15,506 bases of DNA from the IMG/VR virus record IMGVR_UViG_2703718798_000014, positions 1 to 15,506 of that record; one strand, written 5' to 3'. Within the stretch, counting starts at the first letter, position 1, and every line of letters begins with the position of its first letter. The translations under genes and the position numbers were made by a program. Shown here piece after piece: positions 1 to 15,497 of the stretch. The DNA is from a virus (Duplodnaviria; Heunggongvirae; Uroviricota; Caudoviricetes). A model generated the notes under the pieces. It did no database searches. It had not been told where the DNA came from and saw only the letters and a program-made list of their open reading frames with translations.

Positions 1-440
1 GGCGCTCCCCTTCATTGGCAGATTGATTATGCCTGAGGATCTCTAAATGCGAATTGCACGATTATACGAAGTACTTAACAACGTTTTATAGAAGCTTACG
101 CTCCAACCTCTCTATCTGTAGTCTGTTACAGACTAATGATGCAGTAATCTGCAAAAAATGACCAACCAATAATGGAATATCACTACAGGTTAATCACTAT
201 TGTCAGATACAAACTGCATTTATGGTATAAAGGTATGTGATCTTTTCTATCCATACTTGGTCCGGCGTGATAATACTGAAGCCTTCTTACAAAAGGTTGT
301 ATGATACAGGCTGGTCATATTTATATGACCCGATTCTCTGCTGGCTACGCCAGCTACCACGTAAGCCGGGAAAATGACTTGAGGGTAAATTTGCATCTGC
401 AAGCCACTTCCCCTAATCTAGCACAAAATATAGAGATTCA

Positions 441-491
441 ACCAAACGACTCGGGGTGCCCTTCTGCGTGAAGGCTGAGAAATACCCGTAT
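441..491 (+). ncRNA. 5' portion of a TPP (THI-box) riboswitch aptamer, thiM-leader-like, truncated after ...GAGAAATACCCGTAT
   Basis: 441-491 (AACCAAACGACTCGGGGTGCCCTTCTGCGTGAAGGCTGAGAAATACCCGTAT) matches the E. coli thiM leader as I recall it, including the CUGAGA element. The expected continuation (CACCUGAUCUGG...GCGUAGGGAA) is absent; sequence diverges at 492. From memory, not a search. Confidence 0.6.
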
Positions 492-576
492 TTTCTCATT
501 TAGTGTTTTTTGCGGTTCGGGGGTGTTCGTGGTTGTTTGTGTATGTATTTGATATTAAATGAATTATTCTATTTTC

Positions 577-644
577 TTGTTTGTTGTTGTTCGTCGTTGT
601 TCGTAGAGCTTCAACAAAATGTGTGGTCAGTTGTGTGGTCAGTT
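577..644. repeat. Left copy of a ~75-bp imperfect direct repeat (triple TTGTT box plus tandem GTGTGGTCAGTT x2), 36 bp upstream of int
   Basis: 566-643 aligns with 15423-15497 with about 6 mismatches; tandem 12-mer GTGTGGTCAGTT at 621-632 and 633-644. Confidence 0.7.
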
Positions 645-679
645 TTTTGAGGCTGGAGGACTGAAAAGAGGATCTGATA

Positions 680-1915
680 GTGGGAAAAGCACTAAACAAA
701 CTGAGCGATTCGACGTTAAAAAAATTGGCGGCTGTCCAGGCAGAAAAAGAGCGTTTTTACTCCGACGGGGGCGGGCTGGAGATTAAACACTCAAAAGGCG
801 GCAAATTAACCTGGTATTTTCGGTACCGAACGGGAGGCCGTGAGGTCGCCGCAGAGCGGTTAAAGCTGGGGGCTTACCCTGAGCTGTCGCTGAAAGCTGC
901 TAGGGAAAAACGCACACAGTGCCGGTCATGGCTGGCTGAGGGTAAAAATCCCCGTTATGAGTTGTGCGCCACAGTACAGGAAGCATTAAAACCCGTTACG
1001 GTGAAGGAGGCGATTAACTACTGGCTGGAGGAATACGCGAAGGATAATCGCAAAGACTACATAAAACTGGTGCAACGTATGGATAAGCACATCATTTGCC
1101 ATATAGGGGCAATCCCTCTTGATAAATGCGATACAAGGCAGTGGATCGCATGTTTTGACCGTGTACGAAAAAAAGCACCAGTAGCAGCAGGGCACGTCAT
1201 GCAAACCTGCAAACAGGCGCTAAAGTTCTGCCGCAGGAGGCGCTACGCGTTCAGTAATGCCCTGGACGATTTGATCGTCAGCGATGTGGGTAAGAGAGCA
1301 GAAATTCGCGAGAGGGTACACAGTAACAGCGAATTAAAGGAAATTTTACGCGCTATCGATGGTGATGTGTTCGCGCCTTACTACAGCGCGTTAATGCGCT
1401 TGCTGATTGTGTTCGGGTGCAGAACGGCAGAGGTCAGACTTTCAGAGATCAAAGAATGGGATCTGAAAGAAATGTTGTGGACAGTGCCAAAAGAGCACAG
1501 CAAAACGAAGGTAACGATATTCAGGCCAATCCCCGATGGCATTTTGCCGTTCATTCAGAAGCTGGTGGAGCAGAACCGACATACAGGGTTATTGCTCGGA
1601 GAACTGAAAAAAGATACCACGGTAGCGCAATATGGGCGAAATGCGCATAAGCGGCTTAACCAGGAACACTGGTCGCTGCATGACTTTCGCCACACGTTTA
1701 CAACGATGATGAACGATTTAGGTGTCGATCCGCATATCGTGGAGCACATCACAGCGCATCAGATGCCCGGTCAGCAAAAAACCTATAACCATTCACGCTA
1801 TTTACAGGCAAAGCGTGACGCCCTTAATCTATGGGTAGACCGTCTCGAGCTTCTCCAGAACAATGATGAAAAAATCGTTGTTATGATCCCGCGAATTTAC
1901 ACCCAAAATTCTTGA
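680..1915 (+). CDS. int: Tyrosine recombinase / phage integrase (P4-type, N-terminal arm-binding domain)
   Basis: 411 aa ORF with GTG start and AAGAGG RBS 8 nt upstream. C-terminal catalytic signature HDFRHTF...HITAH...YNHSRY (R/H-x-x-R/H, tyrosine). Lies at the island edge next to the junction. Confidence 0.9.
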   Translation: MGKALNKLSDSTLKKLAAVQAEKERFYSDGGGLEIKHSKGGKLTWYFRYRTGGREVAAERLKLGAYPELSLKAAREKRTQCRSWLAEGKNPRYELCATVQEALKPVTVKEAINYWLEEYAKDNRKDYIKLVQRMDKHIICHIGAIPLDKCDTRQWIACFDRVRKKAPVAAGHVMQTCKQALKFCRRRRYAFSNALDDLIVSDVGKRAEIRERVHSNSELKEILRAIDGDVFAPYYSALMRLLIVFGCRTAEVRLSEIKEWDLKEMLWTVPKEHSKTKVTIFRPIPDGILPFIQKLVEQNRHTGLLLGELKKDTTVAQYGRNAHKRLNQEHWSLHDFRHTFTTMMNDLGVDPHIVEHITAHQMPGQQKTYNHSRYLQAKRDALNLWVDRLELLQNNDEKIVVMIPRIYTQNS

Positions 1916-1958
1916 CAAATTACGGCTGTTTTTCTTGCGAAAAATGGCCCTCTAAAAT

Positions 1959-1991
1959 AAATCGTCGAATATCGGCAAATATCGACGATTT
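1959..1991. promoter_or_regulatory. Inverted repeat with perfect 10-bp arms (AAATCGTCGA / TCGACGATTT, 14-bp spacer) downstream of int
   Basis: Arms at 1959-1968 and 1982-1991 are exact reverse complements. No clear U-run follows, so a protein-binding site is as likely as a terminator. Confidence 0.35.
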
Positions 1992-2323
1992 ATATGTGTC
2001 AAGTATTGAAAAAATTTGAAATGTCTTCTTCTGAGTTCTTATTCTCTGTTTCTTGATTGTTCCAACACCTGATGGTTTATCTATTTGTTTTTAATGAGGT
2101 AACTCAGGTGTCATGCCAAATGACGACATTTTTTGTTGCGTCGCTTAAAAACTCGTGACACGATTTCATGAACAGCAGCAAACTCTAGAGAACTTTGACG
2201 AACATAAAGTTCAGAAAGGTTACGTATTCAATTTAAGAGGTGAAAAAAGCTAAGAAGTAATCTTTTCCCGTATATCCACAGCGAAACAAAAATTTCTATA
2301 CGTAATTTTATGTAGGGCTTTTT

Positions 2324-2518
2324 ATGCGCGAAATAAATGAAGATCGTGTAATCCGCGAAAAAGAATGCAGAGAGCTAACAGGCGTTTGCCGCACAACTCG
2401 TTACGAGATGGAAAAACAAGGCCGCTTTCCCTCCCGTATCAGTCTTGGCGGTCGTTCGGTTGGCTGGATTAAGTCTGAGGTTGTCGCCTGGGTCAAAAAC
2501 CGCGAACGCGTCAATTAA
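2324..2518 (+). CDS. alpA: AlpA-family (Xis-like, MerR-type winged helix) transcriptional regulator
   Basis: 64 aa; motif ELTGVCRTTRYEMEKQGRFPSRISLGGRSVGWIKSEVVAWV matches the AlpA pattern TG..R.T.Y....G.FP....LG.R.VGW..SE...W. Position immediately after int is typical of P4-like elements and PICIs. Confidence 0.85.
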   Translation: MREINEDRVIREKECRELTGVCRTTRYEMEKQGRFPSRISLGGRSVGWIKSEVVAWVKNRERVN

Positions 2519-2550
2519 GAATATTCATTCTTTAAATTCCGTCCGTGTTT

Positions 2551-2577
2551 TTGTTTGTACTTGTTCGCGGTTGTTCG
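2551..2577 (+). promoter_or_regulatory. Triple-box module TTGTTTGTAC-TTGTTCGCGG-TTGTTCG (10-bp register)
   Basis: Boxes begin at 2551, 2561, 2571. The same module recurs at 577-603, 15426-15452 and, in variant form, 7910-7936; a looser copy at 514-540. Followed by SD TAAGGAG (2608-2614) and ATG 2624. Confidence 0.55.
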
Positions 2578-2676
2578 TGAAGAAAAGAAGCGGCGCGTAT
2601 GCACCGCTAAGGAGTTTATTTTCATGACTTATGCAGCTTTCAATCTTAGCACCGCCGTAGCTGGTGGACAAGGCTA

Positions 2677-2904
2677 TCAGCCAGGCGGTCGGTTTTTGCC
2701 GGATTTAAGCCGCCGTGGGTATTTCTCGACAAAATCTTCAAGGGCAAATTTTTCTGGTGGCACTAAGCGCGGCGCTGGTGGTGGTATTTTTGTTCTGGTT
2801 AGTTCTTCCTCAAGTCTGGCGCAGGCTTCTGACTGCCTTTGCCGGATGATTTCATCATCTTGCGTTTGCGTGTCTTGTATTGGTGATAGTGTGTTGTTGG
2901 TCAT
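2677..2904 (-). CDS. Hypothetical protein (75 aa), second gene of leftward regulatory pair
   Basis: ORF downstream of and co-directional with the RHH gene; charged, helical-looking composition; weak RBS. No recognised domain. Confidence 0.4.
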   Translation of the reverse strand: MTNNTLSPIQDTQTQDDEIIRQRQSEACARLEEELTRTKIPPPAPRLVPPEKFALEDFVEKYPRRLKSGKNRPPG

Positions 2905-2961
2905 GATACTGCCCTGTAAAGCAATGCGCCGGAGTACCTCACACCACGGCGCTGATAGTGA

Positions 2962-3141
2962 TTATTCTGATTCTTTGGCCTTACGGCGCTGGCGGCGTTT
3001 GATCTCGCCTCGCATGGCTGTAACGATAAATTGCGCAGTGCTCTCGCCTGTTTCTTTTACTTGCTCCATAGCCTCAACAACTTCATGCGGGGCGCGAGCC
3101 TGTAATTTCTGTGATTTGTTATTGATATGGTCTCTTTCCAT
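2962..3141 (-). CDS. Ribbon-helix-helix (CopG/Arc/MetJ-like) DNA-binding protein, candidate island repressor
   Basis: 59 aa ORF, below the ORF-track length cutoff, translated by hand: MERDHINNKSQKLQARAPHEVVEAMEQVKETGESTAQFIVTAMRGEIKRRQRRKAKESE. Segment LQARAPHEVVEAMEQVKETGESTAQFIVTAM fits the RHH beta-strand/helix A/G-x-S turn/helix B pattern. AGGGA RBS 8 nt upstream. Start abuts a triple-palindrome operator. Confidence 0.5.
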   Translation of the reverse strand: MERDHINNKSQKLQARAPHEVVEAMEQVKETGESTAQFIVTAMRGEIKRRQRRKAKESE

Positions 3142-3157
3142 TTCTGGTTCCCTTTGT

Positions 3158-3259
3158 GATTACTGGAATCCAGTATACACGAAAAAGACCAAAACAAAAC
3201 GCTTGAAGTGGATTCCACTTAGTGATTATACTGGAATCCAGTTGAGTGTTTATCACTCA
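3158..3259. promoter_or_regulatory. Divergent promoter/operator region: three related palindromes (ACTGGAaTCCAGT x2, AAGTGGAtTCCACTT) plus IR TTGAGTG-N5-CACTCAA; candidate rightward promoter TTGAAG-N18-TATACT
   Basis: Perfect palindromes at 3163-3175, 3206-3220, 3230-3242. O1 and O3 sit in ~22-bp direct repeats (TGATTA(TA)CTGGAATCCAGT). -35 TTGAAG 3203-3208 and -10 TATACT 3227-3232 are overlapped by O2 and O3. A second TATACT on the minus strand (complement of 3173-3178) could serve the RHH gene. Confidence 0.5.
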
Positions 3260-3338
3260 ATGCAAACGAGGCTGAAAAGGATTGCCGTCCTTTCGCAGCC
3301 TCTGACCACCAACGATAGCGAAAGTATCGAGGTAGCTA

Positions 3339-3538
3339 TGAGAAATCATACCACACACCCGCAAGGGCGGGACTCGCACAACCTGAATAAATTCACCTGG
3401 CGCTTTATGCAGTGCCTGACAGACAGCATTGCAATATTCACCGTTACCGCTGCCACTGAACGCGAAGCCCGCGCCCAGTTGCCGCACGCACATCTGATTT
3501 TTGTCGCCCGTATTCGTCAGGGGGTGTGCCATGCCTGA
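3339..3538 (+). CDS. Hypothetical protein (66 aa; alternative start 3260 gives 93 aa), first gene of rightward operon
   Basis: GAGGT RBS 5 nt upstream of ATG 3339; E. coli-preferred codons; stop overlaps next gene start (coupling). Strand assignment is uncertain: an antisense ORF (3257-3532) covers the same DNA. Confidence 0.35.
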
Positions 3539-3851
3539 TATGTCAAATTACCAGTACCTGATTAATCCGCATTTTAAGTGTGATCATGATATTGCTAAGA
3601 AGGTTTATTCCGCTGCTGATGGGGCTACTGACAATATATCAATGGGTATTGCGTCAATTGGTAGCCTTATGTTTCATGCGTCAGAAAATGAGGAATATGA
3701 CGAAAAGGCCATGCGCATTGATATGGGTAATATCGGTTTGTTACTGGCAATGCTTGGACATTTTGATATTTCGTTACGGTGCACCATTGAAAATGCCACA
3801 GATGCATTAAATGCCATAAAGAAAGCGAATACTGATTCAAATCGGGGATAA
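3531..3851 (+). CDS. Hypothetical protein (106 aa)
   Basis: ATG 3531 with AGGGGG RBS 6 nt upstream; overlaps previous stop. No recognised motif. Confidence 0.5.
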   Translation: MPDMSNYQYLINPHFKCDHDIAKKVYSAADGATDNISMGIASIGSLMFHASENEEYDEKAMRIDMGNIGLLLAMLGHFDISLRCTIENATDALNAIKKANTDSNRG

Positions 3852-3857
3852 ATAATC

Positions 3858-4157
3858 ATGAGAACGTATTTATCTGGCTTGACTGCCAGCGGTTATGCAC
3901 ATCCAAAAATTATCCCCGGCGCTATTTATCGGGATAAGAACGGCAACAGAGTAACAGTAAAATCGATAATGTTTGACCGTGTGTATTTTATTCGTGATGG
4001 CTATTCATTTCATAGCTCGCTGAACGTGGAGATCTTTATTTGCAGATTCCGGCGGGAAATTCCGCCTTCCAGAAATAACCATGTGTCATGTATGGATGTT
4101 GATAAAAAACTACAGGAACTGAAAAACATGATTGCCGCGTGGAGAGAGCAGAAATGA
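3858..4157 (+). CDS. Hypothetical protein (99 aa)
   Basis: ATG 3858 with GGGGA RBS; stop overlaps primase start (ATGA). Confidence 0.5.
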   Translation: MRTYLSGLTASGYAHPKIIPGAIYRDKNGNRVTVKSIMFDRVYFIRDGYSFHSSLNVEIFICRFRREIPPSRNNHVSCMDVDKKLQELKNMIAAWREQK

Positions 4158-5971
4158 AAAAAGCGCCAAATTTAAAACACCAGCCACGTGACAAAATGAC
4201 GGAAGTCATCATTTTTGCGGGTAGTGATGCGTGGGCACATGCGAAGCAGTGGCAGGAACAGGACGGGCGACTGGCTGGCGATAACGTGCCACCTGTCTGG
4301 CTTGGAGAGCAACAACTTGCCGAACTGGACAACCTGCAAATCGTACCGGACGGACGCTATCGCGTGCGTCTCTATCAGGCGGGGTTATTGCGTTCGGGGC
4401 TTGTTAATACCATCGGGCAGAAACTGGCAGCGGCAGGTGTCAGGGATGCTGATTATTACCCTGAAGGAATGCACAGCCAGAAACGGGAGAACTGGCGCGA
4501 ATATCTGGAACGTGAGCGGGGAGATCTGACGGAAAAGAAAAAGGTAGTTGAACTGCCTGTAAAGAAAAAAGAGCGGGTAAAAGACGATAACGCTTCATCA
4601 CTGGCGCTTAACCAGATGGGAGCAAGTCAACGCGGCGAAGTTCTCCTGGCACATTATGGCGGTGAACTGGCGATTAATGCTGACTCTGACACTGTTCACC
4701 ATTACAACGGCGTTGTATGGGAGCCAGTACAGGATAAAGAATTACAGCGAGCTATGGCACAGATTTTCATTGATGCGGAGATCAGCTATTCGCAGAACGC
4801 CATTAAATCGGCGGTCGATACCATGAAGTTAAGTTTGCCTGTAATGGGGAATACAGCCCGTAACCTGATTGGATTCAGTAACGGGGTATTTGATACCCGT
4901 ACAGGTGATTTCCGTGAACACGATAAAAATGACTGGCTGTTAATTGCCAGTGAGTTACCGTTCACTCCACCAGCAGAAGGTGAAACGCTGGCAACACATG
5001 CGCCGAATTTCTGGAAGTGGTTACGCCGTTCGGTGGCTGAGAATGACCGCAAGGCAGATCGCGTTCTGGCAGCGTTATTTATGGTGCTGGCGAACCGGTA
5101 CGACTGGCAGTTATTCATTGAGGTAACAGGTCCAGGGGGAAGTGGTAAAAGCGTGATGGCGGAGATTTGCACCATGCTGGCGGGTAAGGCCAACACAGTA
5201 TCGGCAAGCATGAAGGCGCTGGAAGATGCAAGGGAACGCGCGTTAGTGGTTGGCTTTTCGCTGATTATCATGCCGGATATGACCCGCTACGCTGGTGATG
5301 GGGCAGGAATTAAGGCCATTACAGGCGGTGACAAGGTGGCAATTGACCCGAAACACAAAGCCCCCTACTCAACGCGTATTCCGGCAGTAGTGCTGGCGGT
5401 TAACAATAACGCCATGTCATTCAGTGACCGCAGCGGGGGGATCTCGCGCCGTCGGGTGATATTCAATTTTTCGGAAGTTGTACCGGAGAACGAACGCGAT
5501 TCAATGCTGGCGGAAAAAATAGAAGGTGAGCTGGCGGTAGTGATTCGTCATCTGCTTACACGGTTTGCTGACCAGGACGAAGCCAGACGCCTTTTATATG
5601 AGCAGCAGAAATCAGAAGAAGCACTCGCGATAAAGCGTGAAGGTGATTCGCTGGTGGACTTCTGCGGCTATCTCATGGCGTCGGTAATGTGTGATGGCCT
5701 GTTAGTGGGTAATGCTGAAATTGTGCCATTCAGCCCGCGCAGGTATCTCTATCATGCCTATCTGGCTTATATGAAGGCACATGGGTTTGGTAAACCTGTA
5801 ACACTGACGCGCTTCGGTAAAGATATGCCGGGGGCAATGGCGGAATATGGCAGGGAGTATATGAAACGGAAAACGAAGCACGGTTTGCGTTCAAACGTGA
5901 CACTGACGGAGGAATCAGAAGACTGGATGCCGTCATGTGTATCGGTCACTAATGACGATAGCAAAAATTAA
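4154..5971 (+). CDS. DNA primase/helicase, P4-family (SF3 helicase-type NTPase)
   Basis: 605 aa from ATG 4154 (GGAGAG RBS 7 nt upstream; the track start 4139 is an upstream GTG). Walker A GPGGSGKS in ...FIEVTGPGGSGKSVMAEI...; Walker B-like LIIMPD. Followed directly by an iteron array of the P4 ori type. Confidence 0.85.
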   Translation: MKKAPNLKHQPRDKMTEVIIFAGSDAWAHAKQWQEQDGRLAGDNVPPVWLGEQQLAELDNLQIVPDGRYRVRLYQAGLLRSGLVNTIGQKLAAAGVRDADYYPEGMHSQKRENWREYLERERGDLTEKKKVVELPVKKKERVKDDNASSLALNQMGASQRGEVLLAHYGGELAINADSDTVHHYNGVVWEPVQDKELQRAMAQIFIDAEISYSQNAIKSAVDTMKLSLPVMGNTARNLIGFSNGVFDTRTGDFREHDKNDWLLIASELPFTPPAEGETLATHAPNFWKWLRRSVAENDRKADRVLAALFMVLANRYDWQLFIEVTGPGGSGKSVMAEICTMLAGKANTVSASMKALEDARERALVVGFSLIIMPDMTRYAGDGAGIKAITGGDKVAIDPKHKAPYSTRIPAVVLAVNNNAMSFSDRSGGISRRRVIFNFSEVVPENERDSMLAEKIEGELAVVIRHLLTRFADQDEARRLLYEQQKSEEALAIKREGDSLVDFCGYLMASVMCDGLLVGNAEIVPFSPRRYLYHAYLAYMKAHGFGKPVTLTRFGKDMPGAMAEYGREYMKRKTKHGLRSNVTLTEESEDWMPSCVSVTNDDSKN

Positions 5972-5984
5972 ACTTATGGAATAA

Positions 5985-6213
5985 CTGTTCACCACTGTTC
6001 ACCCTGTCATAAATATCTTTTATATCAGTATATTATAGGGTGAACAGTTATTTATGAACTGTTCACCAAACTATTCACTGTTCACCTTTTTGATTGTTTA
6101 TTGAGCTTCAAGGGTGAACAGTGGTGAACAGTTGGTGAATAGTTTTTGTGAAACTGTTCACCCCTTAACATTATGAATTAAAAGATAAAATATCAAAAGG
6201 TGAACAGGTGAAG
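5985..6213. repeat. Replication origin: at least 9 exact copies of the octamer core TGTTCACC / GGTGAACA in both orientations (plus degenerate copies), flanking an AT-rich segment
   Basis: Direct (CTGTTCACC) at 5985, 5995, 6059, 6078, 6154, with degenerate 6071. Inverted (GGTGAACAG) at 6039, 6113, 6123, 6199, with degenerate 6134 and 6208. AT-rich 6010-6038. Octamer matches the P4 ori/crr type I iteron as I recall it. Confidence 0.75.
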
Positions 6214-6258
6214 GGTTAAAACGCAAAAATTTTAATTTACTGCTGTGAGATAAAGCCT

Positions 6259-6504
6259 ATGACAGCGAAGCACACAAAAAAATCACAATCGCACGCCCTT
6301 GATTTGACGGAACACTGGTTAAGGGTGTCGATAAAAATCATCGACCGCAACGCCGGGGAAGGATATGCGAAAGCACATCCCGAACTGATTAGCGCATTCA
6401 TGACAACGGCAGCTGCAAACTTTGCCACGCTGACAGAACGGGAGATTGCCGAAGCGGAACAGGTAACAACCATCAACGTTAAAACCGGAGAGGTGGAATC
6501 ATGA
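6259..6504 (+). CDS. Hypothetical protein (81 aa)
   Basis: First ORF after ori; no clear RBS; stop overlaps next start. Confidence 0.45.
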   Translation: MTAKHTKKSQSHALDLTEHWLRVSIKIIDRNAGEGYAKAHPELISAFMTTAAANFATLTEREIAEAEQVTTINVKTGEVES

Positions 6505-6806
6505 GCGAACCAAAATTTGGTGAAAAATTTTACAAGCACAACGGACGGATCACGATTCTGCAAATAAGCGCAGCTACACCAGGCTGGTGGGTTGAAACAG
6601 ACGAAGGATCCTCACCTGTGGCATCATGGGCGCTTTGTGTGCTTAGTTACCCTGACCGCGATGTGTATCAGGATATTCTGCCTGTGATATCCACTGACAA
6701 AGGCATGAAACCCGTAGACATCAAAAACATGGGTTTTCAGTGTGTAATGCTCACTGAAAAAATGATGGAAGAGATGAAAAAGAACAACGCCGGATCGCTT
6801 CACTGA
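6501..6806 (+). CDS. Hypothetical protein (101 aa)
   Basis: GGAGAGGTGG RBS; ATGA overlap with previous gene. Confidence 0.55.
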   Translation: MSEPKFGEKFYKHNGRITILQISAATPGWWVETDEGSSPVASWALCVLSYPDRDVYQDILPVISTDKGMKPVDIKNMGFQCVMLTEKMMEEMKKNNAGSLH

Positions 6807-6815
6807 GGTGGCAAT

Positions 6816-7226
6816 ATGACAGCACAAATTGCAGCTTACGGGCGGCTGGTGGACGACCCGCAGGTAAAACAGACCAGTAAGGGCACACCGATGACGCTGG
6901 CGCGTATGGCGGTATCGTTGCCATGTAGTCAGGCGCAGGATGGGCAGGCGACGTTATGGCTATCGGTCATCGCATTTGGTAAGCAGGCCGACTTCCTGGC
7001 TAAACATCAAAAAGGCGACGTTGCCAGCGTATCCGGCACGATGCAGGTCAGCCAGTGGACCGGACAGAACGGGGAAACGCGGCAGGGTTATCAGGTTATT
7101 GCAGACAGCGTAATCAGTGCCCGTGCGGCACGTCCTGGCGGGAACAGACGCAAAACCACAGGCACACAGGGTAATCAGCCACCAGCGGGAGGCGATGACC
7201 CTTACGGTGACGGTATTCCGTTCTGA
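6816..7226 (+). CDS. ssb: Single-stranded DNA-binding protein (OB-fold, SSB family) with short C-terminal ...DDPYGDGIPF tail
   Basis: GAGGTGG RBS. N-terminal YGRLVDDPQV...; core WLSVIAFGKQADFLAKHQKGDVASVSGTMQVSQWTGQNGETRQ aligns by eye with E. coli SSB (W..V..FGK.A....KG......G....WT...G); C-terminal GIPF resembles the DIPF tip. Confidence 0.75.
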   Translation: MTAQIAAYGRLVDDPQVKQTSKGTPMTLARMAVSLPCSQAQDGQATLWLSVIAFGKQADFLAKHQKGDVASVSGTMQVSQWTGQNGETRQGYQVIADSVISARAARPGGNRRKTTGTQGNQPPAGGDDPYGDGIPF

Positions 7227-7236
7227 GGGGGTGGCG

Positions 7237-7509
7237 ATGGTACATGACCGCATAGCGGAAGAACTCGAGGCGAAAGGCTTTTACCGGAGGGCGGCGGCGC
7301 GATGGGGTGAAGTCATGCTGCTGGTGGAGACAGACAAGGAACGGCATCAGGTTACGATGCGACGGCTGGAATGTTCCAGGAAGGCACAGAAGCCACCGGA
7401 GCCGCCGGATAACTTCGGAGACCTGAGAAAGGCAGTAGATCGCACTTATGCTGAAATGGGTATAGATGGTGTAAGCGATGAAATATGGCGTAATTACCCA
7501 GACAGCTAA
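7237..7509 (+). CDS. Hypothetical small protein (91 aa); possibly PerC-like regulator (tentative)
   Basis: ATG 7237 with GAGGGGG RBS (the track start 7117 is an upstream extension overlapping ssb). Motif EELEAKGFYRRAAARWGEVM resembles my recollection of PerC-family proteins; unverified. Confidence 0.5.
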   Translation: MVHDRIAEELEAKGFYRRAAARWGEVMLLVETDKERHQVTMRRLECSRKAQKPPEPPDNFGDLRKAVDRTYAEMGIDGVSDEIWRNYPDS

Positions 7510-7514
7510 TCAAC

Positions 7515-7538
7515 AGCCGGAGAAATCCGGCTTTTTTT
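7515..7538 (+). terminator. Rho-independent terminator (stem AGCCGGA / TCCGGCT, GAAA loop, T7 run)
   Basis: Perfect 7-bp stem 7515-7521 / 7526-7532, tetraloop GAAA, then TTTTTTT; directly after the stop of the 7237-7509 gene. Confidence 0.65.
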
Positions 7539-7633
7539 GCACCAGTTGAAACGGTATGGCGCATTACCGGGTTTTCGTCACGGTCAGGCATAGTTACTAT
7601 CTGAAACAAACAGACACAACAGAGGAAAAAACA

Positions 7634-7858
7634 ATGCCGATGAAATTTGATGAGATATTAAAACAGCGTGATAAATACCATGCTGACAACATGGAGACGA
7701 TGAGCATCAATGATTACCGCGCATTCCTGGAGACGGGCGCACTGATTGAAAAGGATCAGCATGGTTTTGTGAGATGTGCTCTGTCCGGTGAAATGCTGGC
7801 GGTAAATCCTGAACAGATAGATGCATTGATAGAATTTCTGAAAGGGATCAGGGACTGA
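7634..7858 (+). CDS. Hypothetical protein (74 aa)
   Basis: ATG 7634 with AGAGGA RBS 7 nt upstream (the track start 7556 is an upstream extension). Flanked by two near-identical terminators. Confidence 0.5.
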   Translation: MPMKFDEILKQRDKYHADNMETMSINDYRAFLETGALIEKDQHGFVRCALSGEMLAVNPEQIDALIEFLKGIRD

Positions 7859-7868
7859 GCACGCATAC

Positions 7869-7890
7869 AGCCGGAGCAATCCGGCTTTTT
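7869..7890 (+). terminator. Rho-independent terminator (same stem AGCCGGA / TCCGGCT, GCAA loop, T5 run)
   Basis: Stem 7869-7875 / 7880-7886 identical to the 7515 terminator; T-run follows. Confidence 0.6.
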
Positions 7891-7909
7891 GTCATTTTTT
7901 GTAAATTAT

Positions 7910-7936
7910 TTGTTCGTGGTTGTTCCACGTTGTTCA
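7910..7936 (+). promoter_or_regulatory. Triple-box module TTGTTCGTGG-TTGTTCCACG-TTGTTCA upstream of the head/packaging operon
   Basis: Boxes at 7910, 7920, 7930 in exact 10-bp register; 215 bp upstream of the capsid ATG; third box (TTGTTCAC) also resembles the ori iteron. Confidence 0.5.
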
Positions 7937-8049: not shown

Positions 8050-8112
8050 AGGCGGGAAAACGATCGGTGCGATTGCTGATTTCCTTATGAAAAACGGTTG
8101 AGTTTTTGCCGC

Positions 8113-8150
8113 GTCCTGGAGTTCCTTACTTAACCCCAGGACTTTTTTTT
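8113..8150 (+). terminator. Intrinsic-terminator-like hairpin plus T8 run ending at the capsid start codon (candidate attenuator or antitermination target)
   Basis: Stem TCCTGGAGTT (8114-8123) pairs with AACCCCAGGA (8132-8141) with one mismatch; T8 at 8143-8150; ATG at 8151. No Shine-Dalgarno can fit between hairpin and ATG. Confidence 0.5.
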
Positions 8151-9308
8151 ATGCCGAGAATAATCGAATTACGCCAGCAGAAAACCGCCATTAAAAATCA
8201 GATGCGCGACATGCTGGAGAACGCGGAAAAAGAAAACCGCAGCCTTAACGATGCAGAGGGCGCAAAATTTGACGAATTACGCGCTAAAGCTGAATCCCTC
8301 GATAAAGACATTTCCCGCCTTGAAGCCATTGCAGACGAAGAGCGCAGCAAGCCAGGTAAAAGCAGCCAGACCACTGACCCGGCAGAACTCCGCAACTACA
8401 TCCTGACAGGTGAAACCCGCGCATTAAGTACAGGCGTTCCCGCTGATGGTGGTTATACCGTTATCCCCGAACTGAACACCGAAATCATGCGAATGCTGAC
8501 GGATGAATCCACCATGCGCCGCATCTGTACCGTGAAGAAAATCAGCAGCAACGAGTTTAAGCAGCTTGTTTCCGCTGGCGGTGCGACCGTTAACCACGGT
8601 GAAGAGGGTAAGACACGCGAACAGACCAGCACCCCGCAGATTAACGAGGTGAGCATTAAGCTGTATCCGGTCTATGCGTACCCGCGCACCACACAGGAAA
8701 TCGTGGATTTTTCCGATGTGGACATCCTTTCATGGCTGACGGGTGAGATTGGCGACACCTTCACGGAAACCGAAGAAAGCGATCTGGTTGTGGGCGACGG
8801 TGACAAAAAAGCAAAAGGTTTTTTATCCGTACCCCGTGCAGAGAAGAACGACAAAGAGCGTGATTTTGGTACGTTGCAGGTAATTAAACCTTCCGAATCT
8901 CTGGCGTGGACATCTGCGGACCCGCTGATCGACCTGAAATTTGCATTACGTAAAAAATACCGCAAAAACGCGGTCTGGGTGGTTAACTCCACGACGGCGG
9001 CAAAACTTCAGAAGGTGAAGAACGCGAACGGTGATTACATCTGGCGCGACCGTTTACAGGCTGGTGATCCTGATACGTTGCTGGGCCTTCCGGTCGAATA
9101 TCTGGAGTTTATGCCTGATAACGTTATTGCCCTGGGTGACTTCAAACGCGGTTACTACATTGTTGATCACGAAACAGGTGTTCGCACCAGACCGGACAAC
9201 CTCACAGAGCCGGGCTTCATCAAAATTTTCACGCAGAAATATTTAGGCGGTGGCGTGGTGGATTCGAACGCGATCAAGATTCTGGAACTGCCACAGGACG
9301 ACGATTAA
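8151..9308 (+). CDS. Major capsid protein, HK97 fold, with N-terminal delta (scaffold-like) domain
   Basis: 385 aa from ATG 8151 (the track start 8106 is an upstream TTG). N-terminal coiled-coil-like IELRQQKTAIKNQMRDMLENAEKENRSLNDAEGAKFDELRAKAESLDKDISRLEA; C-terminal half resembles HK97 gp5 by eye (...GDYIWRD...LLGLPVEY...GDFKRGYYIVDHETG...). Confidence 0.9.
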   Translation: MPRIIELRQQKTAIKNQMRDMLENAEKENRSLNDAEGAKFDELRAKAESLDKDISRLEAIADEERSKPGKSSQTTDPAELRNYILTGETRALSTGVPADGGYTVIPELNTEIMRMLTDESTMRRICTVKKISSNEFKQLVSAGGATVNHGEEGKTREQTSTPQINEVSIKLYPVYAYPRTTQEIVDFSDVDILSWLTGEIGDTFTETEESDLVVGDGDKKAKGFLSVPRAEKNDKERDFGTLQVIKPSESLAWTSADPLIDLKFALRKKYRKNAVWVVNSTTAAKLQKVKNANGDYIWRDRLQAGDPDTLLGLPVEYLEFMPDNVIALGDFKRGYYIVDHETGVRTRPDNLTEPGFIKIFTQKYLGGGVVDSNAIKILELPQDDD

Positions 9309-9318
9309 CAGCATACAG

Positions 9319-9347
9319 AAGGGGCTTAAAAGCCCCTTTAGTGTTTT
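9319..9347 (+). terminator. Stem-loop (AAGGGGCTT / AAGCCCCTT) after the capsid gene; partial terminator or stability element
   Basis: Perfect 9-bp inverted repeat 9319-9327 / 9330-9338, followed by T-rich TTTAGTGTTTT; sits between capsid stop and protease start. Confidence 0.4.
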
Positions 9348-9920
9348 ATGGGTGAAAAAATTATGAAGAGTATGGAAATCCGGTCATCGGAAATCACCAC
9401 CAGCGCCAGCAACACGCTTACAGGCTACGTTGTTCGCTGGGATAAGCTTTCAGAGCTGCTATGGGGGGAGTTTTACGAAAAATTCCAGCGGGGAGCGTTT
9501 ACTGAATGGCTTGCGGCGGGTAATGACGTTCGCGGCCTGTATGAGCATGACCACAGCATGTTGCTGGGGCGTACCCGTTCCGGCACGCTGAAACTGGAAG
9601 AGGACGAAACAGGGTTACGCTTTGAACTGACCCCACCGGATACCAGTACAGGGCGCGACGTTATCGAACTGGTTAAGCGTGGGGACATCTCGGGGATGAG
9701 CTTTGGCTTTCGCTCCCGTAAGGATGTATGGGATACCACAACAGATCCATGCGTGCGCACCGTGCTGGTGGCGGAACTGTACGAAATTACCGTTACATCG
9801 GTACCGGCTTACCCCGATTCCGGCGTGGAGCTGGCCCGCCGTTCCCTGTATGAGCAGCACCCCGAAAAAATGCCGCGTGCGGATAATCGCCGCTGGTGGG
9901 TGGATTTAGCGGGGGTGTGA
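9348..9920 (+). CDS. Prohead maturation protease, HK97 family (peptidase S78)
   Basis: Motifs TGYVVRWD, YEHDHSMLLGRTRSGTL, GRDVIELVKRGDISGMSFGF, ITVTSVPAYPDSG match the HK97 gp4-type protease pattern. Start ambiguous (ATG at 9348, 9363 or 9372). Confidence 0.85.
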   Translation: MGEKIMKSMEIRSSEITTSASNTLTGYVVRWDKLSELLWGEFYEKFQRGAFTEWLAAGNDVRGLYEHDHSMLLGRTRSGTLKLEEDETGLRFELTPPDTSTGRDVIELVKRGDISGMSFGFRSRKDVWDTTTDPCVRTVLVAELYEITVTSVPAYPDSGVELARRSLYEQHPEKMPRADNRRWWVDLAGV

Positions 9921-9921
9921 T

Positions 9922-11133
9922 ATGTGGCTTTTCAGAAGAAAAAAAGAGCAGCGCAGCATGACGCTTGATGAATTTATGGCGCTGGCTGGCACATCGAACA
10001 CGGGGGCGGGTGAGTACGTATCATCGGGGACAGCGGAATCACTGCCCGCCGTCATGAACGCCGTGACGGTCATCTCTGAGGCGGTGGCTACCATGCCGTG
10101 TTACCTGTACCTGGTACGCAATGAGAAGGGTAAGGAGGCCCGCGAGTGGCTTGATTCTCATCCGGTCGATCATATCCTCAACGAGCGCCCGAACGCATGG
10201 CAAACCCCCTACCAGTTTAAGCGAATGATGATCCGCCACTGCCTGTTAAACGGTAATGCTTACGCGGTGATTCAGTGGGGGCGTGATGGTTTTCCGGCGG
10301 CTTTACATCCTTACCCGCCGCAGTCGGTGAACGTGGAGCAGACAGGAGAACACAACTGGCGCTATTGCATCACTGACGCCTACACCGGAAACACCCGCAA
10401 CTATTTACCGTGGGAAGTACTTCACCTTCGTTACTCCACGGATGACGGCTTTATGGGGCGCTCACCTGTAACCATCTGCCGCGAATCGCTGGGGCTTGGG
10501 CTGGCCCAACAACGCCACGGCGCGAGCGTGATGCGTGATGGCATGATGGCGGCAGGGGTTATCACGTCAGGCGAATGGCTGGACGGCGTGAAAGGCAAAC
10601 AGGCATTAGCCGCACTGGAACGCTACAAAGGGGCCAGAAACGCCGGAAAAACGCCCATCCTTGAAGGGGGCATGAGTTACCAGCAGCTGGGCATGAGTAA
10701 CCAGGACGCCGAATGGCTGGCCTCCCGTCGCTTCACCATTGAAGACATCGCCCGAATGTTCAACGTCTCGCCGATTTTTCTGCAGGAATACAGCAACAGC
10801 ACCTACAGCAATTTCAGCGAGGCAAGCCGCGCATTTCTCACCATGACGATGCGCCCGTGGCTGGCGAACTTTGAGCAGCAGATAAAAAACGCCTTGCTGG
10901 TGGTCTCGCCTGTACCTGGTATCCGGTATCAGGTGGAGTTTGACAGCGCGGACCTGTTACGGGCCACACCTGGCGAACGCTTTGCCACCTATGAGCGAGG
11001 CATCAAATCCGGTGTTATGTGCCCGAACGAAGCCCGCGAACGAGAAGGGTTGTCTCCGCGTGATGGTGGTGATGAGTTCAGCCAGGCATGGAAACAGGAA
11101 GTAAAAATCAGCGAGGGAGAAAAACCGGAATGA
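9922..11133 (+). CDS. Portal protein, HK97 family
   Basis: 403 aa; portal-like motifs ERPNAWQTPYQF, LLNGNAYAVIQW, GRSPVTICRESLGLGLA, DAEWLASRRFTIEDIARMFNVSPIFL, NEAREREGL. GGGGGTG RBS; position after protease. Confidence 0.9.
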   Translation: MWLFRRKKEQRSMTLDEFMALAGTSNTGAGEYVSSGTAESLPAVMNAVTVISEAVATMPCYLYLVRNEKGKEAREWLDSHPVDHILNERPNAWQTPYQFKRMMIRHCLLNGNAYAVIQWGRDGFPAALHPYPPQSVNVEQTGEHNWRYCITDAYTGNTRNYLPWEVLHLRYSTDDGFMGRSPVTICRESLGLGLAQQRHGASVMRDGMMAAGVITSGEWLDGVKGKQALAALERYKGARNAGKTPILEGGMSYQQLGMSNQDAEWLASRRFTIEDIARMFNVSPIFLQEYSNSTYSNFSEASRAFLTMTMRPWLANFEQQIKNALLVVSPVPGIRYQVEFDSADLLRATPGERFATYERGIKSGVMCPNEAREREGLSPRDGGDEFSQAWKQEVKISEGEKPE

Positions 11134-11468
11134 ACATAGGGCGACTGCGTGACAGGGTAACGATTCAGACCCTGAAACAGACCAGAGCCATGACGGGCGA
11201 AATACTCGAAACGTGGGAGGACGGTCACACACTCTGGGCAAGCGTGAACATGGTCAGCAGCAAGGAGGCCATTTCATCGGGTGCAGAGCTGGCGATTGGT
11301 ACCGTAAGGATCTGGATACGGTACCGGAAGGACATCAACGCCACCAGCCGGATAAAGGTCAATACGGGGCCGCTGGCGGGGCGTGTACTGAATATCATCG
11401 GGCAGCCGCTGCCGGATGCCGCCAGGACACGCCTTGAAATTCTTTGTCGTGAGGGCGCGGAAAAATGA
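11130..11468 (+). CDS. Head closure / head-tail joining protein (Phage_H_T_join-like)
   Basis: 112 aa from ATG 11130 (ATGA overlap with portal stop; the track start 11088 is an upstream extension). N-terminus MNIGRLRDRVTIQ and ...WASV...IRYRKDI... fit the head-tail joining family pattern. Confidence 0.7.
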   Translation: MNIGRLRDRVTIQTLKQTRAMTGEILETWEDGHTLWASVNMVSSKEAISSGAELAIGTVRIWIRYRKDINATSRIKVNTGPLAGRVLNIIGQPLPDAARTRLEILCREGAEK

Positions 11469-11761
11469 CAGAAGAACTTATCACCCTGGAAGAAGTGAAA
11501 CTCCATTGCCGCATCGATGGCGACGAGGAAGACCAGTTAATCAGCGGATACATTGCCGCATCGCTTGAGGCGTGCCAGATACACATAGGCAGGCGCTTTG
11601 ATGACGGGCTGGAGTTCACGCCAGCCATAAAGATTGGCTGCATGATGTTTATCGCTCACCTGTATGAGAATCGCCAGATTGTCGCGGATAACGCAAAAAC
11701 ACACGTACCCATGACGATTGGCGCACTCTGGACGGCTTACCGTGATGTGGGGGTGTACTGA
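11465..11761 (+). CDS. gp6-like head-tail connector (DNA-packaging) protein
   Basis: 98 aa; N-terminus LITLEEVKLHCRIDGDEEDQLISGYIAASLEACQIHIGRRF matches the gp6-like connector pattern; start overlaps previous stop. Confidence 0.7.
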   Translation: MTEELITLEEVKLHCRIDGDEEDQLISGYIAASLEACQIHIGRRFDDGLEFTPAIKIGCMMFIAHLYENRQIVADNAKTHVPMTIGALWTAYRDVGVY

Positions 11762-12201
11762 TGCCGTGGCAACCATTAAGACGATGTACAGAACCAGGCT
11801 GCAACAGGCGCGTGAAGTCCGGCAAGTGTGAGGAGCACAGACGCAGCGCACGCCAGCAGCAGGACAGCCGGAGAGGCAGCAGCAGGGAGCGAGGGTATAC
11901 GAGGCAGTGGGAGAAATACCGCGCCATGTATCTGAGTAAAAACCCGTTATGTGCGCATTGCCTGGAAAAAGGAATATACACGCCCGCCGTGGTGGTGGAT
12001 CACATTATCCCAATCGATGGCGGTAATGATGTTCTCTTCTGGCCTGAGTGGAATCATCAGCCATTGTGCCAGGCGTGTCATAACCAGAAAACGAAATGGC
12101 TTGATCCGTCCACAAAAAACAAGCGTGCTGCGGGTGGATTCCGTGAGGAGGAAGAACGGGCCGCTAACCGCAATAACTGGATGTATGGCGCTGATGAATG
12201 A
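11761..12201 (+). CDS. HNH endonuclease (packaging-associated)
   Basis: 146 aa; zinc-finger/HNH signature CTEPGCNRRVKSGKCEEH...NPLCAHCL...VDHIIPIDGGND...NHQPLCQACHNQKT. Position just upstream of the terminase genes is typical of HNH/cos-packaging HK97-like heads. Confidence 0.85.
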   Translation: MPWQPLRRCTEPGCNRRVKSGKCEEHRRSARQQQDSRRGSSRERGYTRQWEKYRAMYLSKNPLCAHCLEKGIYTPAVVVDHIIPIDGGNDVLFWPEWNHQPLCQACHNQKTKWLDPSTKNKRAAGGFREEEERAANRNNWMYGADE

Positions 12202-12367
12202 GCGGGAACAAAACCGCCTTATCCGTGGACTTATAAGGCAGCGTGACGCATGGAAGGCACAGGAAACAGGGCATAAAGATAAAGCATCAGGACGCGCAGA
12301 ACGCATCACAGCGACGCGATTAAACGACCGTGACCGCGAGGTTATGGAATGTTTCCGCAATCGCTGA
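12194..12367 (+). CDS. Possible small basic protein (57 aa) between HNH and cos candidate
   Basis: ATG 12194 (or 12185), weak RBS, overlaps HNH stop. Product MNEREQNRLIRGLIRQRDAWKAQETGHK... The track ORF 11951-12367 is an upstream extension overlapping HNH. Confidence 0.3.
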   Translation: MNEREQNRLIRGLIRQRDAWKAQETGHKDKASGRAERITATRLNDRDREVMECFRNR

Positions 12368-12370
12368 TGA

Positions 12371-12489
12371 GGCAGCCGGACGGGGTGGGGGGAGTTTTCA
12401 GGACGAACCCGACCCCGCCCAGAACCGAACGCCTCCTCAAATTTTTATGCACGGGAATTTTTTGAAAAATAATCTGGCGAAAAATAAGC
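12371..12489. other. Candidate cos (terminase recognition/cleavage) region: G-rich imperfect inverted repeat followed by AT-rich A-tract DNA
   Basis: GGACGGGGTGGGG (12378-12390) and CCCGACCCCGCCC (12408-12420) are imperfect inverse complements; then AAATTTTTATGCACGGGAATTTTTTGAAAAATAAT. Located between HNH and TerS as in HK97-like cos phages. Confidence 0.35.
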
Positions 12490-12846
12490 ATGGCAAGACC
12501 ACCGAAAGTCCCCGCCTACCTGGATGACATCGCCGTGAAGCAGTGGCGGGAAAAATCGCGGCAGCTTGCGGAACGGGGAGACCTGACCCCCGCCGACTGG
12601 AGCAATCTGGAACTGTATTGTGTCAACTACTCCATTTACCGGAAAGCCGTTGCAGACCTTGCGGCGCGCGGGTTCAGCATTGTTAACAGTCAGGGCGGCG
12701 AGAGCAGAAACCCCGCATTAAGCGCAAAATCCGACGCTGAAAGAGTGATGATAAAAATGGCCTCCTTGCTCGGTTTTGACCCGATAAGCCGCCGTAAAAA
12801 TCCACCGGAAACAGAAGAAGAGGACGAGCTTGACCGCCTGGAATAA
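12490..12846 (+). CDS. terS: Terminase small subunit (P27 / HK97 gp1 family)
   Basis: 118 aa; pattern ...AVKQWREKSRQLAERGDLTPADWSNLELYCVNYSIYRKAVADL...SRNPALSAKSDAERVMIKMASLLGFDPISRRK matches P27-family small terminase; stop overlaps TerL start. Confidence 0.85.
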   Translation: MARPPKVPAYLDDIAVKQWREKSRQLAERGDLTPADWSNLELYCVNYSIYRKAVADLAARGFSIVNSQGGESRNPALSAKSDAERVMIKMASLLGFDPISRRKNPPETEEEDELDRLE

Positions 12847-14491
12847 GTACGCAGAAGACGTAAAAACGGGCAAAATTCCGGCCTGTAAACGGCTGAAACA
12901 GGCCGTTAAACGGTACTTTTCGGACCTTAAAAACCCCCTTTATACGTTCGATCGTGAGGTTGTGGAGCGGTTTATTGCCTTTTCCAGGGTGTGCCCGCAC
13001 GTAAAAGGGCCGATGCGTGGCAGACCCATTGAGCTGGAGCCGTGGCAGCAGTTCGCCTTTGCGTGCATCCTCGGCTTTAAGGTTAAGGCCACCGGACGGC
13101 GCAAATACACGAGCGCCTTTATCGAAGTGCCGCGCAAAAATGCTAAATCAACGACCGCCGCGATTCTGGCTAACTGGTTTCTGATTATGGAGAACGGTCA
13201 GCAGGATATTTACACCGCAGCGGTGAGCCGTGACCAGGCGAGGATCGTATTTGATGATGCGCGTCAGATGTGCATTTTATCCCGACCGTTACGCAGGCGG
13301 GTGAATATTCAGGCGCATAAGGTGATACACCCGAAAACCAACAGCCTGTTAAAGCCGCTGGCAGCAAAAGCGGCAACTATCGAGGGCACAAACCCCAGTC
13401 TTTCTATCGTGGACGAATACCACCTACACCCCGACAACGGCGTATATTCTGCGCTTGAACTGGGGATGGGGGCACGTCCCGAAGGGCTGTTATTTGCCAT
13501 TACCACATCGGGAAGTAACGTCGTTTCAGCCTGTAAGCAGCATTATGATTATTGCTGCCAGATCCTGGACGGCGAAGAGGTTAACGAATCGCTTTTTGTG
13601 CTGATTTACGAACTGGACGACGAAAACGAGGTTGATGATCCGGAGATGTGGATAAAGGCGAACCCTAATATCGATGTTTCCGTGGATCGTGAAAAACTGG
13701 CCTCAACCATTCAGAAAGCGCGGGGTATTCCGTCGCAATGGGTGGAGATGATGACAAAGCGATTTAATATCTGGTGTCAGGGGACTACCCCGTGGATGGG
13801 TAATGGTGCATGGGCTGAGTGTGCCGGAACGTTCACGGAGGAAGATTTACACGGTCAGGAGTGTTACGCGGGGCTGGACTTATCATCAACCAGCGATATT
13901 TCCAGCGTGTGCTATGCCTTTCCGGTCGGTAAAACCATTATGATGATTTCCCGTCATTATCTGCCGGAGTTCCAGCTACAGAACCCCGCCAATAAAAACC
14001 GCGCTGTCTATCGTCAGTGGGCTAAAGCAGGCTGGATACGCACAACGCCTGGCGACTGCATTGATTACGACCGGATCAGAGATGACATCATGCAGGACGC
14101 GGAGAAATTTAATATCAGGCTGGTGGGCTTTGATACGTGGAACGCCACGCATCTCAGAACGCAATTACAGGGGGCAGGTTTTGAGGTGGAGCCGTTCCCG
14201 CAAACCTACCTCAGATTCAGTCCGGCGGCGAAATCGTTCGAAGTTTTTGTTAACCGCAGGGTGATTGTGCATCGTGGCGATCCGGTGTTGTCCTGGTCGA
14301 TGAGTAACGTCGTGATGCAGAGTGACGCGAACGCCAATATCAAGCCGAACAAGAAAAAATCACCGAACAAGATAGACCCGAGCGTGGCGGCGCTGATGGC
14401 GTTTGGTACATTCCAGGCAGAGCATGAGGATTTTGCTTTTGATATAAGCGACAGCCACCGCCAGAAACTGGAAGAATTTAGCGGGGTGTAA
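12830..14491 (+). CDS. terL: Terminase large subunit (HK97 gp2 / Terminase_1 family)
   Basis: 553 aa; apparent TTG start overlapping terS. ATPase motif VPRKNAKSTTAA (the PRKNGKS-type Walker A of this family) and C-terminal nuclease-like region. Confidence 0.9.
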   Translation: MTAWNKYAEDVKTGKIPACKRLKQAVKRYFSDLKNPLYTFDREVVERFIAFSRVCPHVKGPMRGRPIELEPWQQFAFACILGFKVKATGRRKYTSAFIEVPRKNAKSTTAAILANWFLIMENGQQDIYTAAVSRDQARIVFDDARQMCILSRPLRRRVNIQAHKVIHPKTNSLLKPLAAKAATIEGTNPSLSIVDEYHLHPDNGVYSALELGMGARPEGLLFAITTSGSNVVSACKQHYDYCCQILDGEEVNESLFVLIYELDDENEVDDPEMWIKANPNIDVSVDREKLASTIQKARGIPSQWVEMMTKRFNIWCQGTTPWMGNGAWAECAGTFTEEDLHGQECYAGLDLSSTSDISSVCYAFPVGKTIMMISRHYLPEFQLQNPANKNRAVYRQWAKAGWIRTTPGDCIDYDRIRDDIMQDAEKFNIRLVGFDTWNATHLRTQLQGAGFEVEPFPQTYLRFSPAAKSFEVFVNRRVIVHRGDPVLSWSMSNVVMQSDANANIKPNKKKSPNKIDPSVAALMAFGTFQAEHEDFAFDISDSHRQKLEEFSGV

Positions 14492-14504
14492 TGAGGTCAG
14501 CAGC

Positions 14505-15422: not shown

Positions 15423-15497
15423 CTTTTGTTTGTTATTGTTCGTCATTGTTCGCAGAGCTTCAACGAAATGTGTGGTCAGTTGTGTGGTCAGTTTTTA
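15423..15497. repeat. Right copy of the ~75-bp imperfect direct repeat (triple TTGTT box plus tandem GTGTGGTCAGTT x2)
   Basis: 15423-15497 aligns with 566-643. Boxes at 15426, 15436, 15446; tandem 12-mer at 15469-15492. Homology ends after CAGTTTTT; the window ends 9 bp later. Confidence 0.7.

Follow-up and report, generated by a model that had tools for sequence, protein, structure and literature searches.

Gene content of the element

The DNA analysed here, termed the window, is a stretch of 15,506 nt (positions 1 to 15,506 of IMG/VR virus record IMGVR_UViG_2703718798_000014) that carries a mobile element with the gene order int-alpA-primase-SSB-PerC-capsid-protease-portal-connectors-HNH-TerS-TerL and no tail genes. 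From core to core the element is predicted to span 15.08 kb. The initial annotation, made from the nucleotide sequence without database searches, had taken it for a tyrosine-recombinase element, and the island does begin with a tyrosine integrase gene of the P4/CP4-57 type (680..1915, + strand). The integrase has the Arm-DNA-bind_3 and Phage_integrase architecture (PF13356, 5.6e-18; PF00589, 8e-17), with its domains encoded 189 bp downstream of the junction with host DNA. The closest integrase cluster, from E. coli, is 97% identical; a homologue of 75% identity is found at the same site in Salmonella, and homologues of 66-71% identity occupy different positions, next to cspD and next to a gene for a LysR-family regulator.

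Downstream of int, alpA (2324..2518, +) encodes an excisionase/activator typical of Gram-negative PICIs (PF05930, 7.5e-16; phrog_2790, 'excisionase and transcriptional regulator'). It is followed by the gene of a D5-type primase/helicase (rep; 4139..5971, +; D5_N, DUF5906 and Pox_D5 domains) and by genes for SSB (6816-7226) and PerC (7117-7509). Directly after the primase gene lies a candidate origin of GGTGAACAGT iterons (5970-6190), a dense set of direct and inverted repeats that is probably the replication origin of the satellite. The block at 8106..14491 (+) encodes, by Pfam assignment, the major capsid protein, prohead protease, portal, head closure protein, head-tail connector, HNH protein, TerS and TerL; the connector annotation is taken from a 96.6%-identical copy of this capsid/packaging module in strain JNEC-KY202 (locus L004). 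With the O157:H7 cf-PICI at roxA-phoQ, the module shares 98.8% identity. Families of tail or lysis proteins were not detected among the ORFs scanned, of which some small ones remain unannotated, and the element has no transposase.

The element is a capsid-forming PICI (cf-PICI) of the EcCIEDL933 type. The main text on EcCIEDL933, the cf-PICI prototype, describes a 15.4-kb element with int-alpA-rep and a capsid/packaging module that takes only tails from a helper phage (10.1101/2022.09.08.507074), and reports that induction and tail supply are provided by helper phages HK106 and HK446 (Alqurainy et al., 10.1101/2022.09.08.507074). The window element shares with EcCIEDL933 and the other cf-PICIs, as that text presents them, a size of ~15 kb and a succession from int-alpA-rep to capsid, protease, portal, connectors, HNH, TerS and TerL without tail or lysis genes (10.1101/2022.09.08.507074). 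Its predicted length lies within the 10-18 kb of the class and its left end bears int, alpA and a replication module; it has its own capsid and packaging genes and lacks those for tails and lysis; and its attachment site is not one used by prophages, as neither the integrase nor the att region is found in any of 50,697 GenBank phage records.

The element has a mosaic make-up. Its int/att ends recur on elements of 7.5-11.5 kb, two of which were examined (L016 and L020) and lack the capsid module; its replication module is common to L016, L020, L012 and L015; and its packaging module is common to the cf-PICIs at thiM and at roxA-phoQ. The segments 1849-3300 and 14796-15281, compared with L004, L005, L016 and L020, have no match in any of the four. 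An 18-bp perfect inverted repeat (ATCAGGCTGGTGGGCTTT at 14114-14131 and AAAGCCCACCAGCCTGAT at 15284-15301) has one arm within terL and the other in the right-end accessory region, where L004 has AAAcCCACCAGCCTGAT, one base off from the repeat of the window. Between perC and the capsid gene, a near-identical pair of hairpins with T-runs (ACAGCCGGAGaAATCCGGCTTTTT at 7513-7536 and 7867-7890) brackets a small ORF (7556-7858). In addition, TTGTTCG motifs in 10-bp phase are present on both arms of the attachment site (501-613 and 15424-15462), just downstream of alpA (2549-2577) and upstream of the capsid operon (7898-7936); these may be binding sites for one regulator, AlpA being a candidate, at the excision site and the operon promoters.

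The junction within the thiM riboswitch

The left end of the island adjoins a fragment of a host regulatory RNA. In a megablast comparison of window positions 1-700 with complete E. coli genomes, positions 439-491 (+) correspond, letter for letter, to the 5' half of the thiM TPP riboswitch in 4462 of the 5426 genomes, and an annotated TPP riboswitch underlies this match in nearly all of the matches listed. The match to the thiM leader stops at 491/492, position 492 being the end point in one strain with a SNP. After the shared CCCGTAT, K-12 continues with CACCTGATCTGG, and the window with TTTCTCATT (or, in another excerpt, TTTCTCATTTAG). The proposal that the junction of island and host lies inside the aptamer is borne out by this end of identity at 491, together with related elements in which attR lies directly upstream of thiM; the alignment of 439-491 to the thiM leader and the empty site in thousands of genomes agree with what the initial annotation expected of a genome search.

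The fragment comprises the P1 5' strand, P2, P3 and J3-2, the last three forming the pyrimidine-sensor arm, as judged by genome identity and a partial alignment to the Rfam model RF00059. A scan of the whole window at the Rfam gathering threshold, which is 54.3 bits for RF00059, gives zero hits. In E-value mode, the model scores 19.9 bits over 442-547, the real alignment being confined to the 5' half. An intact copy of the thiM riboswitch scores 71.2 bits, so that the truncated hit foreseen in the initial annotation was obtained. Within the alignment, the pyrimidine-sensor arm (P2/J3-2/P3 with CUGAGA) is placed with high posterior probability at 452-488. The window thus holds a riboswitch fragment and no riboswitch.

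The 3' half of the aptamer, which forms the pyrophosphate sensor, has no match in the window at up to 3 mismatches. The initial annotation noted this absence correctly; the half is missing because the window ends some 52-53 bp before the predicted attR, not as a property of the insertion. In the relatives, the P4/P5 arm and the P1 3' strand are found at attR, ~15 kb from the 5' half, and this remnant scores 34.6 bits, below the gathering score. PGAP annotates no riboswitch at either the attL or the attR junctions.

Core and candidate arm sites of the attachment site

Both ends of the element are available in four relatives: strain JNEC-KY202 (L004), O157:H7 strain MB41-1 (L005) and two from IMG/VR (L016 and L020). 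In L004, L016 and L020, a 14-bp core, AGAAATACCCGTAT, is repeated identically at attL and attR. In O157:H7 MB41-1, the attL core (17985-17998) differs by one SNP (AGAAATgCCCGTAT) while the attR core is unchanged, and the difference either arose by mutation once the element had integrated or marks the position of the crossover. AGAAATACCCGTAT occurs once in the window, at 478..491 (+), as the attL copy of the sequence found at both ends of the relatives. In the RNA, the core corresponds to the end of J3-2 with the conserved CUGAGA motif, the P2 3' strand and J2-4, according to the Rfam alignment.

The relatives read ...GAAGGCTG + AGAAATACCCGTAT + TTTCTCATT... at attL and ...ATTAGTA + AGAAATACCCGTAT + CACCTGATCTGGATAATGCC..., directly followed by thiM, at attR. 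From these ends, attP is reconstructed as ...ATTAGTA + AGAAATACCCGTAT + TTTCTCATTTAG..., and attB is ...GAAGGCTG + AGAAATACCCGTAT + CACCTGATC..., the uninterrupted riboswitch, which is unoccupied in thousands of E. coli genomes. As the 14 bp are common to attL and attR, strand exchange must fall inside 478-491.

Repeats accompany the core on both sides. The P' arm of the att site, together with the int upstream region and its phased TTGTTCG iterons (501-613), occupies 492..679 (+), and the P arm lies at 15426..15496 (+). A 71-nt direct repeat of 94% identity joins the two (577-647 and 15426-15496), and each copy includes a tandem TGTGTGGTCAGT x2, at 620..643 (+) on the P' arm and at 15469-15492 on the P arm. 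The tandem starts 142 bp past the start of the attL core, a distance that is constant across elements, and 90 bp ahead of the start of the attR core, a distance that L004, L005, L016 and L020 have in common. The two TGTGTGGTCAGT units are invariant in nine elements, including that of Salmonella, though the neighbouring sequence diverges. This conservation and spacing, together with the Arm-DNA-bind_3 domain of the integrase, mark the tandems as good candidate sites of the arm type. The constant distance of 90 bp also allows the attR core of the window element to be placed ~53 bp past the window end, at a predicted ~15559-15572. The 14-bp core and the conserved arm repeats, which the initial annotation had missed, are the experimentally relevant unit of this site.

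Taken with the gene content, these features make it very probable that 441-500 is the attL of an integrated cf-PICI, formed when its P4/CP4-57-type integrase joined attP to an attB within the thiM aptamer.

The upstream flank and a second integrase in the same aptamer

Host identity was initially read as running without a break to position 491. This applies to 439-491, which is thiM leader, and not to the left flank (1..438, +), the DNA upstream of the riboswitch in the window strain, from which the K-12 rcnR-thiM spacer is absent. The flank is common in full, at 100% identity, to one complete genome only, that of strain GF3-3, in which the native spacer is replaced, the interval from rcnR to the one riboswitch being occupied by genes for RelA/SpoT and NACHT proteins and by an IS remnant. 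O157:H7 and a few other strains match only 391-438. This uneven sharing indicates that the DNA upstream of the thiM riboswitch differs between lineages. The flank is probably the right end or a remnant of a decayed defence island that also targeted the thiM riboswitch.

A second island type bears on this reading. Window 383-491 is 86% identical to positions 26419-26528 of locus L006, which cover the right-hand end of an island and run into the beginning of a riboswitch copy. This island encodes a second tyrosine recombinase, int2, which acts in the same aptamer with a core, AATGCCAGCGTAG, located 30 bp downstream and is unrelated to the window integrase (BLASTP E > 1). Of the 5426 E. coli genomes, 191 cover at least 80% of a query that extends over attL2 and the beginning of int2. 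The int2 islands (L006 and L002) resemble the thiM satellite in their position at the rcnR-thiM locus and in the aptamer, in a tyrosine recombinase beside attL and in a flanking direct repeat. Unlike the satellite, they have an unrelated integrase, a displaced core and TIR/NACHT cargo, and L006 rebuilds the riboswitch: the right end of its island supplies ~80 bp of riboswitch 5' sequence with an upstream region of its own, and thiM is thereby preceded by a complete riboswitch (72.2 bits). The L006 island, with TIR and NACHT cargo, is flanked by an 80-bp direct repeat (16001-16080 and 26479-26560); in the L002 variant, only 13 bp are duplicated (3068-3080 and 5312-5324).

It is quite possible, if not the favoured reading, that the 439-491 fragment is itself island-borne, such that the cf-PICI interrupted a riboswitch copy brought by another island and not the ancestral leader. 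The departure of 1-438 from the native spacer is consistent with such a history, as are the right end of the L006 int2 island, which carries its own riboswitch 5' part preceded by sequence aligning with window 383-438, and the 80-bp direct repeat around that island. By contrast, in strain JNEC-KY202 (L004), which has a K-12-like background, the native rcnR-thiM spacer runs directly into this attL, which shows that the cf-PICI targets the chromosomal site. In GF3-3, the sole genome with the same flank, there is one riboswitch copy and it is the working one, whatever its history; a second, full riboswitch immediately to the left, which the initial annotation had named as evidence against a host origin of the fragment, is thus not seen, the single copy of GF3-3 lying between rcnR and thiM. 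An island-borne origin would alter the history of the 5' half and not the nature of the junction, which stands as an attL in either case.

The palindrome at the junction

The junction had drawn attention as a core-like palindrome, GAGAAAT-ACCCGTA-TTTTCTC, and these are indeed the letters of window 477-497. The reported 7-bp inverted half-sites are not perfect: the arms agree at 6 of 7 positions, which amounts to an inverted repeat with perfect arms of 6 bp and a spacer of 9 bp. The feature is therefore described as an imperfect palindrome with candidate core-type half-sites, B on the host side and C' on the island side. Its spacer, ACCCGTA (484-490), falls within the block of 14-bp identity between attL and attR (478-491). 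A crossover layout with ACCCGTA as spacer is plausible and fits the data, with the half-sites regarded as candidates only. As a DNA hairpin, the palindrome has a predicted energy of -3.8 kcal/mol (z -2.3). A role as RNA terminator, separating the thiM leader from int, was also considered and was rejected, as the hairpin is weak and no terminator-like site is found.

The alternative that the palindrome is a chance feature without a role in recombination, with the core sites and overlap elsewhere in or beside the 14-bp identity, is less likely than not. Sites of equal quality number 32 in the window, compared to 19.7 in shuffled sequence, and with equals this common the palindrome by itself is only weak evidence. 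In the reconstructed attP, as in the attL of Salmonella, the symmetry is down to 5/7, and attB has little dyad symmetry. Against a chance origin, the palindrome is centred on the junction with its spacer inside the identity block, and its island-side arm, TTTTCT, is kept in nine elements including that of Salmonella while the sequence beyond diverges. Of the crossover layout first proposed, the position of the spacer is compatible with the data, and the palindrome is statistically ordinary; its location and the conservation of TTTTCT lend it some weight.

Distribution of the junctions

The attL junction and the attR junction are each present in 75 of the 5426 complete E. coli genomes, and the number that have the two together is also 75. 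Some ~1.4% of the complete genomes carry junctions, and these include some O157:H7 and ST131 strains. The identical junction also occurs in IMG/VR contigs, and a Salmonella enterica contig has the same split-riboswitch junction and arm repeat beside its 75%-identical integrase. Among species-representative genomes, the 23-nt attL pattern has no match, and a protein scan with the integrase confirmed no relative. In strain A34 (NZ_CP028741.1), attL (~3,159,900, - strand) and attR (~1,674,400, + strand) lie 1.5 Mb apart on opposite strands, a layout suggestive of a large inversion of the chromosome, one end of which would lie within the island.

Searches for the unintegrated site with the exact attP pattern gave no hits in IMG/VR and none in the JGI metagenome contigs, an absence that is weak evidence. 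A looser search with a 19-mer identified nine IMG/VR loci, of which seven are attL junctions and one (L019) begins at the core itself, with its upstream side unreadable. A further 19-mer hit (L017), on an 80-kb contig with no integrase nearby, was set aside, as such a match is close to chance expectation for a 19-mer in a collection of this size.

That the junction is not site-specific at all, and is a chimera of the assembly, a breakpoint of illegitimate recombination or the insertion of a transposon with target duplication, is extremely improbable. The location of attR outside the window is the one point in favour of this reading. Against it, 75 complete genomes share the identical junction with IMG/VR contigs and with Salmonella, the flanking direct repeat is always the same 14-bp sequence, and the integrase has an arm-binding domain, in an element that has no transposase.

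Predicted mechanism and consequences for thiMD

On the reading of 441-500 as the attL of a site-specific integration, strand exchange would have occurred somewhere within the 14 bp of identity (window 478-491), and the integrase would probably also bind the TGTGTGGTCAGT tandems at their fixed distances on both arms. By analogy with the PICI literature, AlpA would act as excisionase/activator upon induction by a helper phage. On integration, attL would retain the promoter region upstream, the P1 5' strand and the whole of the P2/P3 arm, now pointing into int, and attR would retain thiMD and its expression platform together with an orphan P2 3' strand, the P4/P5 arm and the P1 3' strand. Binding of TPP requires both sensor arms of the aptamer; as each end holds one arm, neither half should sense TPP.

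The suggestion that insertion would uncouple thiMD from its promoter and riboswitch agrees with the arrangement in the relatives, in which ~15 kb lie between thiMD and any upstream promoter and the 5' aptamer half; the effect on expression is a prediction from this arrangement. With thiMD cut off from its promoter, the operon is expected to be blind to thiamine and would rely on transcription leaving the right end of the island. The thiM and thiD genes are annotated as intact in L004 and L005. A search of the final 1.1 kb of the island gave no consensus promoter that faces thiM, and no terminator is predicted to separate the truncated leader at attL from int.

In RNA folding, the minimum-energy structure of the attR leader keeps the hairpin of the expression platform in which the Shine-Dalgarno (SD) sequence is free. 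The SD-free and SD-sequestered folds differ by ~1-3 kcal/mol, and the outcome depends on the 5' end of the leader. As the sequestered alternative lies this close, a 'constitutively ON' state of thiMD translation is not claimed. The claim is therefore limited to the loss of ligand control, with no defined level of expression: thiMD would lose TPP control, as judged from the sequence.

At the other end, window 441-560 folded as RNA has the G/U-rich iterons of the island paired with the P1 and P2 5' strands (-35.1 kcal/mol, z -2.4). This pairing of the iterons with the truncated leader may be an incidental effect of base composition.

A broader model is offered tentatively and is unlikely to hold in full. 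The aptamer would be a convergent landing pad for two unrelated integrases with opposite outcomes. At least one int2 island (L006) would bring a promoter region and an aptamer 5' part and rebuild a working riboswitch, whereas the cf-PICI would split the aptamer, leaving thiMD thiamine-blind and int downstream of the host thiM promoter. Thiamine salvage and biosynthesis would in this model be under a reversible switch, set by integration and by excision upon helper induction, with int expression coupled to the integrated state.

Relation to known mobile elements

The cf-PICI common in O157:H7 is close to the window element in its packaging module and differs in its att site. That the two use the same site was considered for the O157:H7 element/EcCIEDL933 and rejected, as the O157:H7 element sits between roxA and phoQ. 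Unlike that cf-PICI, which has another integrase, the window element has an int/att module for the thiM riboswitch.

The integrase places the satellite with the P4/CP4-57 family, whose members target tRNA genes and the tmRNA gene ssrA. It shares the Arm-DNA-bind_3 and Phage_integrase domains of that family and is ~55% identical to CP4-57-like integrases. As in elements of the family, int adjoins attL, repeats are present on both att arms and the target is a highly conserved structured RNA. By contrast, the target of the window element is the cis-regulatory leader of an mRNA and not an RNA gene. Elements that insert in tRNA genes normally bring a replacement for the displaced 3' end; the thiM satellite differs in that it duplicates only 14 bp, such that the aptamer is split and the target is not rebuilt.

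Elements that disrupt a gene and act as regulatory switches include phi10403S in Listeria comK and SpyCIM1 in mutL. Like these prophages and islands, the satellite parts a host operon from its promoter and regulator, and precise excision would restore the arrangement. Unlike them, it disrupts a riboswitch aptamer and not a coding sequence or promoter.

The mechanism is ordinary integration by a tyrosine recombinase, and the satellite family is published; what is unusual is the aptamer as target and its division without regeneration. In the literature searched, which for the cf-PICI papers means their main text, no paper was found in which an attachment site is connected with thiM or with a riboswitch; six attB sites are mentioned in the cf-PICI papers, and neither thiM nor a riboswitch is named among them. 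A riboswitch aptamer as attB thus appears to be undescribed.

The practical value of the site is modest, the attB, attP and arm sites being of use for detecting excision of the satellite or for engineering integration. Its biological interest is wider. Known landing sites of mobile elements are tRNA genes, the tmRNA gene and a few protein genes, and the thiM satellite indicates that conserved structured-RNA leaders can serve the same role as tRNA genes. The ~1.4% of complete E. coli genomes in which thiMD stands behind half a riboswitch constitute a natural experiment, and if thiMD expression changes, carriage of the satellite would alter the thiamine metabolism of its host.
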